DNA from: Escherichia virus TH24
Sequence record: MT446398.1
Reading direction: 5' to 3' (one strand)
Length of the DNA stretch: 52,806 nt
Both the position numbers and the translations under genes were made by a program. Positions within the stretch are counted from its first letter, which is position 1. Each line of letters begins with the position of its first letter. The notes beneath the pieces are model-generated. The model was given only the letters and a program-made list of their open reading frames with translations, did not search any database and had not been told where the DNA came from. This document shows positions 24,733 to 42,067 of the stretch, piece after piece.

Positions 24733-25243
24733 GTATGAAGGGTTTGTTGAGAACACAGACCTGACTGAAAGCCAGCAAGTGCTCAAGGACGAGCACAAGA
24801 TTCTTTTCGGATGTGATAAGAATAGAACATGCTGGTATAAGATTCGCAAATCTTTAAAAGACGGCACGGCCAAAGTTGTTTATGAAGATGATGGCTCTAT
24901 CCGACACATTGACTTTGGTCCTGGCGACACTGTGGCTACTCCGCTCGGTGGAAACATAGTTGAGCTGGAGTCACTGCCAGATGGTGTTGAAGAAAACAGA
25001 CACTTCTGGAAGTTTGATGGCGAGAAGTTTGTTGAGCATAAAGAAAACCGTGTGAAATATAACGAGTTTATGCGTAAGAAGAAACTTGCGCCACTTACGG
25101 AAGAAATCGGCATCCTCACCGACATGGTTGAGCTTGGTATGGCTAAGAAGTCGGACAACGAATTGTTGATTGAACTTAAGAAGAAGCGTATCAAACTATC
25201 TCAACTCGACTCAACCGAAGTAATTGACTGGAAAGAACTCTAA
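24701..25243 (+). CDS. Tail fibre assembly chaperone (putative)
   Basis: 180 aa; C-terminal pattern (LAPLTEEIGILTDMVELGMA...IDWKEL) resembles fibre-assembly proteins. Start 24701 or 24713. Confidence 0.5.
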   Translation: MGRGMTVILCKYEGFVENTDLTESQQVLKDEHKILFGCDKNRTCWYKIRKSLKDGTAKVVYEDDGSIRHIDFGPGDTVATPLGGNIVELESLPDGVEENRHFWKFDGEKFVEHKENRVKYNEFMRKKKLAPLTEEIGILTDMVELGMAKKSDNELLIELKKKRIKLSQLDSTEVIDWKEL

Positions 25244-25584
25244 TGGATAGACAAACTTTCCAGATGGTATGGGAAGCAATGCACCAGTACGGAGTCCTGC
25301 ATGGACTTCTTGCTGGATTGACTGCACTTATTCGTGGAGCATACGAGAAGGAAGGCTTACTGAAGGCCATTCTCGATGCCCTATTATGTGTTGTCATTGG
25401 GACCTTCGTGTTCTCCCTCCCAGGTTTCGTAGACATATTCAAAGACGAACCTCGCTATGCAACAATCGCTGCAATGGTGATTGGACTGATTGGGGCTAAC
25501 CTAATCATTACAACGATTCGTGATTGCTTCACTGCTGCAATCAAACAACTCAACCCACTAAATTGGTTTAAGAAGGCCAAATAA
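25243..25584 (+). CDS. Holin (putative)
   Basis: 113 aa with two hydrophobic helices (LLKAILDALLCVVIGTFVFSL; YATIAAMVIGLIGANLIITTI) and a charged C-terminus; adjacent to a peptidoglycan hydrolase. Confidence 0.5.
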   Translation: MDRQTFQMVWEAMHQYGVLHGLLAGLTALIRGAYEKEGLLKAILDALLCVVIGTFVFSLPGFVDIFKDEPRYATIAAMVIGLIGANLIITTIRDCFTAAIKQLNPLNWFKKAK

Positions 25585-25602
25585 TGCAAACAAGGAACTT
25601 CA

Positions 25603-26160
25603 ATGCTACAAGCACAAGTTCTTGCATTTCTGTTGGTGAGTCTGTTTCACGCAAATGTCCCAGCTTCGGCTGGGGCAGTGAACACTACTATTACAGATTT
25701 TGCAAGTCATTCTTATTTAAATGGAAGTCTGAAACTATCTTCTTCACAACGCAAAGAGCTAGAATGCTACACTAAAGTTGTCTGGTATGAAGCTCGTGGA
25801 GAAGACAAACATGGAAAGATTCTGGTAGCTAATGTCGTCCGTAATAGAACTGAGTTCGGGAAGCCATTCGCTAACACCGTTTGTGATGTTGTCTATCAAC
25901 GCAATCAATTTGCATGGGCACGAGAAGCAAAGAAGAAGAATGCTCAATGGAAGCATGTAGCAAAGGTTAATTATGCCACAGAACAACAACAAGTTCTGGA
26001 CACCATTAACGTTGCAATCTCTTTTGTACTATTTAATCAACCCTCTGTCACCAAAGCAACTCACTTTTGTACAGCATCGGAGAAGTGCAACTTCAAGAAT
26101 GTTAAAGGTTTGGGTCGTTATGGTGGTCATAAATTCTATGAGTATCTAGGAAATCTGTAA
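25603..26160 (+). CDS. SleB-like cell-wall hydrolase with N-terminal signal/anchor sequence
   Basis: [51 protein letters not shown] matches the SleB/Hydrolase_2 core; N-terminal [23 protein letters not shown]. Confidence 0.65.
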
Positions 26161-27278
26161 TGGCTTACACTACCTTTTCACAAACCAAGAATAACCAACT
26201 ATTAGAACCAATGTTCTTTGGTCAGAACGTCAACGTTGCTCGCTATGACCAACAGAAGTACGGCATATTCGAGAAGTTGATTGAGAAACAATTGTCATTC
26301 TTCTGGAGACCGGAAGAGGTAGATGTTTCACAAGACCGTATTGATTATCAGAAGCTCCCACCAAATGAGCAGCACATTTTCACCAGTAATTTGCGCTATC
26401 AAATCCTTCTGGACTCCATTCAGGGACGTGGGCCTAACACAGTTTTGCTTCCAATCGTGAGCATTCCTGAGCTAGAAACTTGGATTGAAACTTGGTCTTT
26501 CTCCGAGACTATCCATTCACGTTCTTACACCCACATCATTCGAAACATTGTTACAGACCCAAGCATTATCTTTGATGAAATCGTAACTAACGAACACATC
26601 AAAGCACGAGCAATTGGCATCTCCCAATATTATGACGAACTTCAACAACTCACTGCATTATGGCAGTTGTTCGGAGAAGGGAATCATGCTGGTCATGAAA
26701 TTAGTCTGCGAGAGTTGAAGAAGAAGCTCTATCTATGCCTCATGTCTATCAACGCACTGGAAGCAATTCGCTTCTATGTTAGCTTTGCTTGCTCATTTGC
26801 CTTCGCTGAACGTAAGCTAATGGAAGGAAATGCCAAGATTATTCGACTGATTGCACGAGATGAAGCACTCCATTTGACCGGAACTCAGCACATGTTGAAT
26901 ATCCTGGCGAGTGGTAAAGATGACCCAGAAATGGGCGAAATTGCCCAAGAATGTCGTGAAGAATGCCAGAAATTATTCGAAGATGCTGCTCAACAAGAGA
27001 AAGATTGGGCCGATTATCTGTTCAAAGATGGCTCCATGATTGGCTTAAACAAGCAAATTCTGTGCGGATATGTGGAATATATCACGAATATTCGTATGCA
27101 AGCAGTTGGATTAGATGCTCCATTCAAAGGTGCAACTAACCCGATTCCGTGGATTAACGCATGGTTGAATTCGGATGCTGTACAGGTTGCTCCACAGGAA
27201 ACGGAGATTAGTTCTTACCTGGTCGGGCAAATTGACTCCGAAGTTGATACTGATGCGCTTGGTGGATTCGAGTTGTAA
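26160..27278 (+). CDS. nrdB: Ribonucleotide reductase class Ia beta subunit (orphan, enterobacterial-like)
   Basis: Near-colinear with E. coli NrdB as I recall it ([11 protein letters not shown]..., [54 protein letters not shown]-terminal [14 protein letters not shown]); no nrdA-sized ORF in the genome. Confidence 0.9.
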
Positions 27279-27300
27279 CGATTAAATGGGAGAAGAGATT

Positions 27301-27325
27301 CGATGCGTTAGCGTCGTTTCTCTTT
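27301..27325 (+). terminator. Rho-independent terminator after nrdB
   Basis: CGATGC-gtta-GCGTCG stem-loop followed by TTTCTCTTT. Confidence 0.5.
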
Positions 27326-27533
27326 GAGCTAGAATAAAATAAGTAAGTTTCCAATATTACTTATTCCCAATATTGCTACAATATTAAGAGTAATATTAGG
27401 AATGCGTAAAGTTCAAAACCAAATGGTACATGGTCGGTCAACTGTATCTAGCCGGAATTTGTTCGAACAGAAGTCCGACTATGTTATAAAATTTTTATAT
27501 AATTTTTTTTTTAATTTAAATATTGTTACAGAA

Positions 27534-40587: not shown

Positions 40588-41429
40588 GTTGCCAAGGGCA
40601 AACTTGAGAGACTAAGCTAAATCGATCTGGCATGCACTGGAAGTTTTCCCGGTGCTGCCTTGAATCCCATTCCAGAGTGAGTGGGCTTCAATGAGCATTC
40701 TTGTGATTAGAGTTGGGAGGTAGGCCGATGCCCAATCTCGTGGCCCAGACAAGAGTGTTCATTGAAGTTGCTTCAATATGGATTGTCGCCAAGTTGTGGA
40801 AGGACGTGCACACAGATTTAACGAAGAAAAGTAGCAGCCTGAGAACTGCGAACATTTCCCGTTATGTCGTGAGGAAGTGCACCATAACTTGGGTTCTTCA
40901 CGTAGATATTACTCAGATATTTGCGGCTCGCTGAATGTGAGCATCCATATTGAAGTAGTTTTCTGAGTCTTACGACAGGCCTAAACTGCCTGGAGTTATT
41001 GCGACTGTTTTATTCATTTAAAATAAATGCAAATGATTCTGAAATGCGAGTTGCAGCTTAATTAAATTTAAGTTCTCTCCGTGGTCTTCCAATCCCATGT
41101 AACCAAATTTGGCGCATTGTGGCTTCGAGATGTGATTAATAAATCGGAGCATTAATTAATTTGTATTCTGCGATGTAATGCAGACTTAAGTCCCTCAGTG
41201 CGCGTAGGGATGTGACAGAGTACAAACTTAATTCATTTAAAGTGAATTGCCCTGAGCATGGAAATAAACTGCTCAAACCAACGATTCTCACAACGGTGGG
41301 ATAAGTTAGGTTGCCTAAGCAAAGACAGCCGGACCATCAATCCTGCTGGCATTCGCAAAGTAATGCGGCTGTCTTGCTACAAGCCTCGCAGTTCGGGAAA
41401 ACCTGCGTTACCAAAACCCACCCAATTTT

Positions 41430-41522
41430 GGACGAGTAGCTCAGAAGGTCTGCTCTAGAGCTTAGTCAGGTAGAGCAATCTGTTCGACAGATGTGTCGTT
41501 GGTTCGAACCCAACCTCGTCCA
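41430..41522 (+). tRNA. Atypical tRNA-like gene, probably tRNA-Arg(UCG), with a 21-nt insertion between position 9 and the D-stem
   Basis: 7-bp acceptor stem GGACGAG/CTCGTCC, T-arm GTTGG-TTCGAAC-CCAAC, D-arm GCTT-AGTCAGGTA-GAGC, anticodon loop GTTCGAC; 93 nt total, extra segment GCTCAGAAGGTCTGCTCTAGA at 41439-41459. Confidence 0.4.
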
Positions 41523-41548
41523 CCCTTAACAACAAACATGGAGTCCTT

Positions 41549-41689
41549 ATGGATTTTGATGCATTAGACAATTTGGACTTCGGTGCTGCCGAAGAAGCAA
41601 TTGAAGAACTCAAGAAGAAGCAGGACGAAGAAGCAATCGTCCCTGGTGCTGGCGACAACGACTGCTCAAGTGGTGCGTGTGCCATTTAA
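41549..41689 (+). CDS. Small acidic protein (46 aa)
   Basis: GGAG RBS 5 nt upstream; MDFDALDNLDFGAAEEAIEELKKKQDEEAIVPGAGDNDCSSGACAI. Confidence 0.3.
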   Translation: MDFDALDNLDFGAAEEAIEELKKKQDEEAIVPGAGDNDCSSGACAI

Positions 41690-41697
41690 GGTGATTC

Positions 41698-41934
41698 ATG
41701 CAACAGCTTAAGTCAATATTTCTTGGCGTCTTGACTGCATTGGGGATTCTCCTTGCAGTGTTCCTCAAAGGTAAAAGCTCAGGCAAAGCCGAGGAGCGTC
41801 AGGAAGCCAAAGAGAAGCAATTCGATTCGTTAAAAGAATCTATCGAGATTAAATCGCATGTTCAGAAAGAAGTGTCTAGCAGTTCTGATAGCAATGTCGA
41901 TAGTGAGTTGCTCTCAAAGTGGGTTCGTAAGTGA
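41698..41934 (+). CDS. i-spanin-like protein (N-terminal TM helix)
   Basis: 78 aa; TM helix IFLGVLTALGILLAVFL then charged segment; an embedded lipoprotein ORF overlaps its 3' end in the +1 frame. Confidence 0.45.
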   Translation: MQQLKSIFLGVLTALGILLAVFLKGKSSGKAEERQEAKEKQFDSLKESIEIKSHVQKEVSSSSDSNVDSELLSKWVRK

Positions 41935-42067
41935 TTATTGCTTAATTGCACAACCAATATATTTGGATGTTGCAGAAGTGAAAGTTTTATCACGCGAAAC
42001 CAAAACACAGATTTTAGTCCACAACGAAACGTGGGCACAAAAGTGTTCGAAACTTACCCGACAGTGA
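41858..42067 (+). CDS. o-spanin-like lipoprotein (overlapped with i-spanin)
   Basis: MFRKKCLAVLIAMSIVSC with lipobox IVSC; starts inside the 41698 ORF in a different frame and extends past it. Confidence 0.45.
   Translation: MFRKKCLAVLIAMSIVSCSQSGFVSDYCLIAQPIYLDVAEVKVLSRETKTQILVHNETWAQKCSKLTRQ

Follow-up and report, generated by a model that had tools for sequence, protein, structure and literature searches.

The lysis genes of Escherichia virus TH24 and their conserved pair of putative peptidoglycan hydrolases

Lysis genes of TH24 and its described relatives

Descriptions of lysis genes are available for several phages of the phiEcoM-GJ1/ST32 group of the Chaseviridae. The ST32 paper lists an endolysin (ORF24), a holin (ORF77) and a second endolysin (ORF78) and matches them, in that order, to gp21, gp73 and gp74 of phiEcoM-GJ1. 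The SKA49 paper reports two hydrolases in two modules and a distant spanin, and the PP101 paper assigns a 'holin-SAR endolysin' (signal-anchor-release) module to every phage of the group and describes about eight promoters for the phage RNA polymerase (RNAP). Here, we analyze the lysis genes of Escherichia virus TH24 (record MT446398.1), whose 52,806 nucleotides, hereafter the window, are identified by sequence comparison as a complete, circularly permuted genome of the genus Carltongylesvirus (Chaseviridae, Cleopatravirinae). The window carries genes for a holin, a SleB-like hydrolase, an M15 peptidase and an i-spanin/o-spanin pair (Table 1). A first-pass annotation made from the sequence had proposed these five open reading frames (ORFs), and all of them were found at the positions and in the families claimed, on the + strand like every long ORF in the window.

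Together, the five genes make up the lysis complement that is standard in the phiEcoM-GJ1/ST32 group, with identical order and positions in phiEcoM-GJ1, ST32, SKA49, MLP1 and Mangalitsa. The scattered layout is real but already described for close relatives (phiEcoM-GJ1, ST32, SKA49, and PP101). As a genome feature it adds little to what is annotated for the genus, and the comparative result is worth more. New are the signal-peptide reading of the SleB-like enzyme, the pattern of its cysteine pairs, the family-wide pairing of two enzyme types, the evidence for two intact hydrolases under selection and a transglycosylase domain in the tape measure protein. Based on these features, we propose with moderate confidence that both hydrolases contribute to lysis, such that an S-type holin would operate with two muralytic enzymes, each taking its own route to the wall, and with overlapped spanins. 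The proposal builds on what sequence analysis establishes, namely the families of the proteins, the integrity of the active sites, the presence of export signals, the order of the genes and their conservation throughout the family.

The lysis genes of TH24 differ from those of the five Carltongylesvirus phages named above in sequence divergence and mosaicism only, with no functional difference evident. Across the window stretch 24-44 kb, Escherichia phage MLP1 is 92% identical over 93% of the length, and TH33, EcoM1, Bp10, ST32, and other members of the genus are 87-92% identical. At the protein level, MLP1 shares 100% identity in the holin, 81% in the SleB-like enzyme, 98% in M15, 96% in the i-spanin and 98% in the o-spanin. 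The holin is identical although 35 nucleotides differ, 33 at third codon positions. EcoM1 has the reverse pattern in the lysis cassette (62% in the holin and 92% in the SleB-like enzyme), and these opposite patterns point to a recombination breakpoint between the two genes.

Table 1. Coordinates of lysis genes, associated signals and other features in the TH24 window.
Feature	Position	Strand	Assignment or context
Holin, 113 aa	25243..25584	+	PF05106 Phage_holin_3_1, phrog_126
SleB-like (SleB/CwlJ Hydrolase_2) lytic transglycosylase-like enzyme, 185 aa	25603..26160	+	PF07486
Predicted Sec (signal peptidase I, SPase I) signal peptide, SleB-like aa 1-23	25603..25671	+	Short Leu-rich h-region, then ASA with predicted cleavage before G
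M15C L-alanyl-D-glutamate peptidase, 131 aa	36520..36915	+	PF13539 Peptidase_M15_4, phrog_465
i-spanin, 78 aa	41698..41934	+	phrog_1026 Rz-like spanin, E 1.4e-19
o-spanin, 69 aa	41858..42067	+	phrog_1275, E 2e-18
Tape measure, 1225 aa	11758-15435	+	Annotated as tape measure in relatives
SLT lytic-transglycosylase domain, tape measure aa 1060-1136	14935..15165	+	PF01464, E 7.9e-7, 29.1 bits vs cut-off 21.3
Tail-fiber assembly protein	24701..25243	+	PF02413 Caudo_TAP, phrog_136; last structural gene
Motif CATTAGTTGGATGTGA sites	1001 (repeated at 52776), 27769, 29910, 30760, 33521, 38049, 38189, 40156, 47762	+	At most 3 mismatches
Motif copy CATTAGTGGATTGTGA, 3 mismatches	1001..1016	+	Just 5' of terminase gene; putative promoter
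Motif copy, perfect	33521..33536	+	5' of SSB; nearest such motif upstream of M15; syntenic copies in MLP1, EcoM1, Mangalitsa, Y2, Fifi44
Motif copy CATTAATTGGATGTGA	40156..40171	+	Heads unit with spanin genes
Terminator-like hairpin	27301..27316	+	After RNR-beta; consensus scan, putative function

Two hydrolases, a holin and a spanin pair

The SleB-like protein matches the Hydrolase_2 profile over residues 66-179, the sole domain detected (E 2e-15; 57.6 bits, cut-off 27). The N-terminal peptidoglycan-binding domain of full-length SleB was not found in the protein, which has a signal peptide and then a helical linker in its place. In phmmer searches, residues 50-105 align with the catalytic domains of SleB (4f55 and 4fet), and E63 in the sequence YEARGE falls on the first glutamate of the SleB motif GESRGE. 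Residues E63, R65, G66, and E67 are invariant in 40 homologues. The AlphaFold model built on these 40 homologues had a pLDDT of 86.8, and a Foldseek search of the PDB returned the SleB catalytic domains 4fet and 4f55 as the only significant matches (probability 1.00, TM(target) 0.64-0.69). The protein thus keeps both the glutamate of the catalytic motif and the SleB fold.

The first-pass annotation had also described an N-terminal signal or anchor in this enzyme and a holin as its neighbor; both are present, in the form of a hydrophobic leader followed by an AxA site and of a holin gene directly upstream. The AlphaFold model shows residues 2-15 as a detached, low-confidence helix. To the 40 protein-database homologues we added the proteins of Myduc, Y2, PP101, pAh6-C, Spp001, VPs20 and one T5-like phage, for a set of 47 N-termini. 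All 47 have a hydrophobic core (median 11 aa, range 7-15; 64% L/V/I/F/M and 33% G/A/S/T) and, after it, an AxA-like site at about residues 18-25, usually with a lysine or arginine before the core. The pattern persists despite turnover of the sequence itself, as in MRKFFLLILLLMAVPASA (cleavage predicted before G) and MKKFMCLLFLLFSFQSHA (before N). SAR domains, by contrast, are long, Gly/Ala-rich and weakly hydrophobic anchors. We used a heuristic of our own, combining composition, length and the AxA site, to separate cleavable signals from signal anchors, and on these grounds rejected the SAR-endolysin reading annotated in Mangalitsa, SKA49, and PP101. The N-terminus looks instead like a cleavable Sec signal peptide, a reading that is new relative to the annotation of the relatives. 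The 'SAR endolysin' label now spreading in Chaseviridae records is thus probably wrong.

The cysteines of the SleB-like protein are consistent with export. There are four (55, 94, 156, and 162), and they behave as pairs. All 40 homologues have Cys55 and Cys94, which are jointly lost in PVN02, while Cys156 and Cys162 are either kept together or jointly lost (9 of the 40 homologues lack them). Pairs kept or lost jointly are the pattern expected of two periplasmic disulfides and fit a periplasmic protein. Furthermore, nearly all of 43 further distinct viral SleB-like proteins, retrieved from IMG/VR and from outside the Chaseviridae, begin with a signal, an anchor or a lipobox, suggesting that export characterizes the phage clade as a whole.

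The second hydrolase, M15, was called T5-endolysin-like, and indeed it is 36% identical to the T5 endolysin (EndoT5) and keeps all of the catalytic residues. Its predicted zinc ligands (H63, D70, and H126), catalytic D123 and conserved W108 align with H66, D73, H133, D130, and W114 of EndoT5, whose roles are given in PMC10487532. The same study has the GJ1 and ST32 orthologues in its alignment and covers the orthologues of T5 and RB49, which are proven endolysins (PMC10487532). M15 also matches phrog_465 (E 2e-54) and the solved L-Ala-D-Glu peptidases 23ri, 8q2g, and 2mxz of the PDB (E 6e-24 to 1e-19). A hydropathy scan of the protein found no signal peptide, transmembrane domain (TMD) or hydrophobic segment. 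The gene lies between the SSB and primase/helicase genes, 3' of the phage-promoter-like motif at 33521. The first-pass annotation was right about this position but called the region early; it is better termed a middle, DNA-metabolism module. M15 is 10.9 kb downstream of the holin in the permuted order of the window and, if the conventional map of the relatives is used, about 40 kb upstream, and is therefore not linked to the holin gene as in T5.

Both hydrolases, proposed earlier as two different enzymes, thus appear intact and keep the catalytic residues of enzymes with different bond specificity. Pairwise ratios of non-synonymous to synonymous substitution rates (dN/dS) against relatives range from 0.24 to 0.33 for the SleB-like gene and from 0.03 to 0.16 for M15, pointing to purifying selection on both, with the stronger constraint on M15, and to decay of neither.

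Holins of the lambda S family are the model case of large-hole holins, through which soluble endolysins are released. The window holin matches PF05106 over profile positions 6-93 of 99 (E 3.7e-9; 37.4 bits, cut-off 23.8) and the holin/anti-holin family phrog_126 with an E of 2.8e-19. A Kyte-Doolittle scan gave strong segments at residues 43-59 (TMD2) and 73-89 (TMD3) and a weaker one at about 17-33 (TMD1), below the threshold used, and the C-terminal tail is basic (KQLNPLNWFKKAK). By its family matches the protein is a predicted class I holin of the lambda S family; curated labels in relatives read 'holin class I' (Mangalitsa) and 'Class I holin - three TMDs' (Myduc). Its dN/dS against relatives (pairwise) is 0.006-0.14. 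The holin start codon overlaps the stop codon of the tail-fiber assembly gene (TAATG), and the SleB-like gene, which has the ribosome-binding site AAGGAA, ends in the same type of overlap (TAATG) with the start of the gene for the beta subunit of ribonucleotide reductase (RNR-beta). The latter (26160-27278) is translationally coupled to the SleB-like gene and stands alone, with no alpha subunit seen; the extreme end of a late operon is an unusual spot for a gene of nucleotide metabolism.

PHROG matches, a TMD and a lipobox support the spanin pair that had been proposed at a distance from the other lysis genes. The i-spanin has an N-terminal TMD (residues 7-23) followed by a charged periplasmic segment of 55 aa without cysteines. 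The o-spanin has the lipobox IVSC, with Cys18 as the lipidation residue and a serine at +2 that predicts sorting to the outer membrane, and two further cysteines (28 and 63) in its mature part. The pair has a two-component, overlapped architecture. The +1 frame of the earlier description stands, as does the overlap, but the o-spanin gene is not embedded: its first 77 nt coincide with the 3' end of the i-spanin gene, and the other 133 nt lie beyond the i-spanin stop. An identical geometry is listed for the GJ1 spanins (overlapped, +1 frame, 78 aa or 237 nt plus 69 aa, 77-nt overlap) by Kongari et al. (PMC6139136, supplement). The o-spanin is 98.5% identical in Mangalitsa and EcoM1, orthologues of the i-spanin with the conserved motifs KGKSSGK and D-EL--W-R are found in Myduc, PP101, and 4HA13, and spanin dN/dS values (pairwise) are 0.07-0.25.

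The homologous spanins of the Sabourvirus 4HA13 (8750-9234) are 'separated', with a 4-nt ATGA junction, whereas those of the window, GJ1, Myduc, and PP101 overlap; the spanin architecture has therefore changed within one phage subfamily. Public records misrepresent the o-spanin, which is cut to 42 aa in MLP1 (19133-19261) and left unannotated in EcoM1, and both spanin ORFs of Mangalitsa (14819-15188) are labeled 'hypothetical protein'. A search for extra membrane or lysis genes beside the spanins (ORFs 40713, 41258, 41549, and 41938) gave no family matches and no TMDs. ST32 and Myduc carry a tRNA-Arg gene 3' of the spanin genes; the window lacks it, and ARAGORN detected no tRNA genes in the whole window.

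Enzyme pairing and transcription units in the Chaseviridae

We compared 12 other Chaseviridae genomes from both subfamilies, with the SleB-like genes of 4HA13 and SSEM1 checked through IMG/VR loci. The comparison covered Carltongylesvirus, Sabourvirus, Loessnervirus, Myducvirus, Suwonvirus, Pahsextavirus, and Yushanvirus plus unclassified or unplaced Chaseviridae-like phages (VPs20 and MSO-5). All 12 encode a SleB-like enzyme with a predicted export signal and a signal-less stem-peptide hydrolase of the M15_4, M15_3 or CHAP type. In the Cleopatravirinae, the second enzyme occupies a slot between SSB and an anti-restriction gene and is M15_4 in MLP1, EcoM1, Mangalitsa, 4HA13, Y2, Fifi44, and SSEM1, M15_3 (PF08291) in Myduc and CHAP (PF05257) in PP101. 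Endolysin genes typically show this kind of non-orthologous displacement, in which the slot stays fixed. The SleB-like gene is in turn tied to the holin, which lies directly upstream in all 14 Cleopatravirinae-type IMG/VR loci.

In the Nefertitivirinae, the partner gene touches the SleB-like gene and encodes an M15_4-like enzyme in pAh6-C and M15_3 in PVN02, Spp001, and VPs20, as well as in the unplaced, Spp001-like MSO-5. The pair is at the end of the tail-fiber operon, just before the RNAP gene, with the gene order reversed in VPs20. This adjacency ties the peptidase to lysis rather than to transcription control. The two Pahsextavirus examined differ in the enzyme beside the SleB-like gene, with M15_3 in PVN02 (2497-3473) and the M15_4-like type in pAh6-C (19440-20387).

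Outside the family, none of 66 non-Chaseviridae IMG/VR loci had a lambda-S-type holin, M15 or PP101-type CHAP within 10 kb of the SleB-like gene, as searched with small home-made hidden Markov models of limited sensitivity, and the pair is therefore not generally adjacent. Records matching M15 numbered 1350 versus 735 for SleB-like proteins. The endolysin of Pantoea phage PA1 (PMC11538084), also considered, is an SPN1S-type lysozyme unrelated to the window enzymes.

The transcription units of the window were read from a 16-nt motif, CATTAGTTGGATGTGA, which occurs with up to three mismatches at nine distinct + strand sites (Table 1). At this threshold there are 12 matches versus 1.46 expected by chance, 11 of them on the + strand, and none was found on the - strand of the window at up to two mismatches. 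Syntenic copies are present in MLP1, EcoM1, Mangalitsa, Y2, Fifi44, and PP101, and the Nefertitivirinae genomes examined have none. The single-subunit RNAP of the phage likely uses the motif as its promoter, and one copy is found immediately 5' of the RNAP coding start used in MLP1. The copy at 1001 is the only one 5' of a late operon of about 26 kb that ends with holin, SleB-like and RNR-beta genes, and the hairpin at 27301 is the likely end of the late transcript carrying the first two. By this reading, M15 would belong to a unit headed by the copy at 33521, the spanins to one headed by the copy at 40156, and the holin and SleB-like genes to the far end of the unit starting at 1001. A cytoplasmic enzyme would be harmless if made early and an exported one is best made late, and the gene positions thus fit the predicted export modes.

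The window has other features of note. A perfect sigma-70 consensus (TTGACA, 17 nt, TATAAT) lies on the - strand at 38090-38118, opposite to all genes, inside a gene-poor gap (37979-38844) and with a + strand copy of the phage-promoter-like motif on either side; it might drive antisense transcription, mark an origin or act as a decoy. The RNAP gene (27738-29792) comes first on the conventional map of the group, which ends with the holin, SleB-like and RNR-beta genes. Bases 1-1031 are repeated at 51776-52806 with a single mismatch, at position 994. This repeat looks like a circular-assembly overlap, leaving a unique genome of about 51,775 bp, and differs from the terminal repeat of about 3.2 kb around the RNAP gene that PhageTerm predicted in Mangalitsa.

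The lysis pathway and its known counterparts

In the order of events that we infer, from timing, export and cleavage to the activity and contribution of each enzyme, M15, lacking an export signal, would be made from the middle DNA-metabolism module and build up harmlessly in the cytoplasm, and the inner and the outer membrane would each receive its spanin. The long late operon would yield the holin and the SleB-like enzyme last. The latter would be exported via Sec, lose its signal peptide by cleavage after Ala23 and become disulfide-bonded in the periplasm. Triggering of the lambda-S-type holin would depolarize the membrane and open large holes that release M15. The peptidase would then cut stem peptides and the SleB-like transglycosylase glycan strands before the spanins, in the last step, fuse the inner and outer membranes.

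Several points weigh against a joint role of the two enzymes. A freely soluble exported transglycosylase poses a problem of premature lysis. The choice between a cleavable signal and a signal anchor was made by heuristics only, and curators disagree on the protein ('SAR endolysin' in Mangalitsa versus 'No TMD - endolysin (not SAR)' in Myduc). The transcription classes are read solely from the repeated motif, and the SleB homologue of T5 is not among the late genes, a caveat on the fit between gene position and export. In the Cleopatravirinae-type layout, 10.9 kb separate M15 from the holin. Furthermore, M15 homologues are the sole endolysins of many other phages and a Hydrolase_2 enzyme is the sole annotated endolysin of SKA64 in one paper, so two enzymes are not generally required. 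The searched literature yielded no experiments on Chaseviridae lysis proteins, and the ST32, Mangalitsa, Myduc, and Tiny papers report no proteomic, transcriptomic or lysis-protein experiments.

One alternative is that the holin and the Sec-exported SleB-like enzyme form a complete pair, with the holin as timer and depolarizer. M15, or the M15_3 or CHAP enzyme in its place, would then not be needed for lysis and could serve in wall remodeling, superinfection blocking or T7-lysozyme-like regulation. We consider this unlikely. It would agree with the SleB-like enzyme being the invariant member, always abutting the holin in the Cleopatravirinae, with the toxicity in E. coli of the signal-bearing homologue CB7_83 and the reported implication of CR3_087 in lysis, and with the description of holin and SleB-like enzyme as 'the' lysis module in the PP101 paper. 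However, the lambda-S-family holin is of the type linked with soluble cytoplasmic endolysins, and the peptidase, found in every genome compared and under tighter constraint than the SleB-like enzyme, lies within the late lysis cassette of the Nefertitivirinae. Its T5 and RB49 orthologues, moreover, have the proven role in lysis cited above.

The regulatory role deserves separate mention, as the first-pass annotation had pointed out that M15 sits where T7 keeps its lysozyme. The T7 lysozyme, gp3.5, has the Amidase_2 fold and binds T7 RNAP. The positional parallel holds, with the order RNAP, SSB, hydrolase, primase/helicase, and DNA polymerase in the window, and counts in favor of an M15 with duties other than lysis. 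By profile and PDB matches, however, the M15 fold is not Amidase_2, the slot holds enzymes of different folds across genera, and the enzyme moves to the late cassette in the Nefertitivirinae. A swap among M15_4, M15_3, and CHAP fits generic wall cutting and not a specific protein-binding regulator, and we rejected the RNAP-regulator role as unsupported.

Conversely, M15 and the S-type holin could be the true pair, as in T5, with the SleB-like protein as an accessory periplasmic enzyme whose part is non-lytic or at most supportive, for instance in local wall editing, and its adjacency to the holin merely reflecting late expression. This, too, seems doubtful to us. The M15 of T5-like phages is a characterized endolysin encoded beside the holin, and T5.083, the SleB-like gene, is in a block of hypothetical genes by the tRNA/RNAX region. 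Similarly, none of the 43 distinct exported SleB-like genes outside the Chaseviridae has a lambda-S-type holin, M15 or PP101-type CHAP within 10 kb, and the dN/dS values show M15 to be the more constrained of the two hydrolases. Yet the SleB-like gene strictly keeps its place beside the holin and its translational coupling in the late operon, none of the 40 homologues departs from the catalytic motif, the CB7 homologue is toxic in E. coli, and the SleB-like enzyme is never lost while the peptidase slot is freely swapped.

It is very improbable that one of the hydrolases is a virion component that pierces the wall at infection: many myoviruses carry virion-associated lysins, and RefSeq labels the slot enzyme of PP101 'baseplate hub subunit and tail lysozyme', but Pfam contradicts that label with a CHAP domain only, the export signal would take the SleB-like protein out of the compartment of virion assembly, and M15 is encoded in the DNA-metabolism module, distant from the structural genes. 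The tape measure protein already has an SLT transglycosylase domain, which would give the virion a muralytic activity of its own, the third in the genome, for use in cell entry. Wall penetration at infection would therefore be accounted for without either hydrolase. Together with the catalytic residues kept in both enzymes and their dN/dS of 0.03-0.33, these features also make it unlikely that one of the two is dead or virion-associated, the outcome named as refuting the first-pass annotation. The tape measure ORF has, in addition, a match to a YqaJ-like recombinase/exonuclease domain at residues 461-597 (E 4.7e-12), which is odd in a tape measure.

A joint role could take a stricter form, in which the exported SleB-type transglycosylase and the signal-less stem-peptide hydrolase are a conserved AND-gate module found again in three unrelated lineages, the Chaseviridae, T5-like Demerecviridae and Vequintavirinae. 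This is possible but improbable and, beyond the conserved pairing, unsupported. The glycan cutter would wait in the periplasm in a mostly latent state as long as the murein is intact and cross-linked, and would become fully lytic only once the holin-released peptidase strips or un-cross-links the stem peptides. Such latency would echo that of Bacillus SleB, which needs a peptide-free cortex. If true, it would explain the absence of premature lysis by the exported enzyme and why the Chaseviridae partners examined are all of the peptidase/amidase type and never glycosidases. A strict 'peptidase-only partner' rule is weakened by Certrevirus, some members of which have a lysozyme-like partner.

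An exported SleB-like enzyme and a swappable cytoplasmic peptidase are conserved across the family, with parallels in T5-like and rV5-like phages. Carltongylesvirus grows on E. coli K-12 and is therefore convenient for settling which enzyme lyses the cell. Should both enzymes prove necessary, or should one license the other, a variant would be added to the three-step lysis model. This would also bear on the choice of enzyme pairs as antibacterials against Gram-negative bacteria.

Each of these components has counterparts in known systems. The S-R-Rz/Rz1 cassette of lambda likewise combines a holin of the PF05106 family with a muralytic enzyme that is soluble and signal-less and with a two-component spanin. 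In the window, however, the lysis genes are scattered, the endolysin candidate is a peptidase and not a transglycosylase, the spanins are overlapped and not embedded, and there is an additional hydrolase with predicted export. The i-spanin is also very short, with 78 aa versus the 153 aa of lambda Rz. In T7, lysozyme gp3.5 is a class II product and the holin (gp17.5) and spanins (gp18.5/18.7) are class III. The window resembles T7 in its single-subunit RNAP, in having genes that all point one way and lysis genes spread over several sites, and in the wall hydrolase encoded between SSB and primase/helicase. It differs in having at that slot an enzyme interchangeable across genera (M15, or CHAP in PP101) instead of an Amidase_2, in the location of the spanin genes (the middle region versus the late region of T7) and in its exported SleB-like enzyme, which T7 lacks.

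The predicted holin-independent export by host Sec resembles that of SAR endolysins (P1 Lyz and phage 21 R21) and of the signal-peptide endolysin Lys44 of Oenococcus phage fOg44. With exported endolysins, the holin is presumably a timer and depolarizer. The SleB-like N-terminus differs from SAR endolysins in its short Leu-rich core and AxA site, and the protein in its SleB-like rather than lysozyme fold; Lys44 differs in that the host of fOg44, unlike that of the window phage, is not Gram-negative. The Bacillus spore-cortex enzymes SleB and CwlJ share the catalytic fold and the G-E-x-R-G-E motif. The phage enzyme, by contrast, has a predicted Sec signal and extra cysteine pairs instead of the N-terminal peptidoglycan-binding domain, and its substrate would be ordinary Gram-negative murein and not muramic-lactam cortex.

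The enzyme pair itself has parallels outside the family. T5 has both families in one genome, as the M15 endolysin EndoT5 and the separate SleB-like gene T5.083, and the T5-type SleB homologue has a Sec-type signal (MKAALLLVAALTFSFSSQA, cleavage predicted before S) and the first cysteine pair. The arrangement is reversed, however, as the holin of T5-like phages adjoins M15 and the SleB-like gene is remote, whereas in the window the holin adjoins the SleB-like gene and M15 is remote. Which of the two hydrolases is used is stated as unknown in a 2024 paper on T5-like phages and likewise in the SKA49 paper. In Pectobacterium phage CB7 (Vequintavirinae), the signal-bearing, SleB-like CB7_83 has a candidate holin next to it and coexists with an M15C peptidase. 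The second hydrolase of CB7/Septuagintavirus is encoded elsewhere and varies between members of the genus (M15 or lysozyme-like), and the spanins are at a third site. These are unrelated phages of about 140 kb with a candidate class II holin, and their partner enzyme may be of the glycosidase type, unlike the peptidase or amidase type of all the Chaseviridae partners examined.

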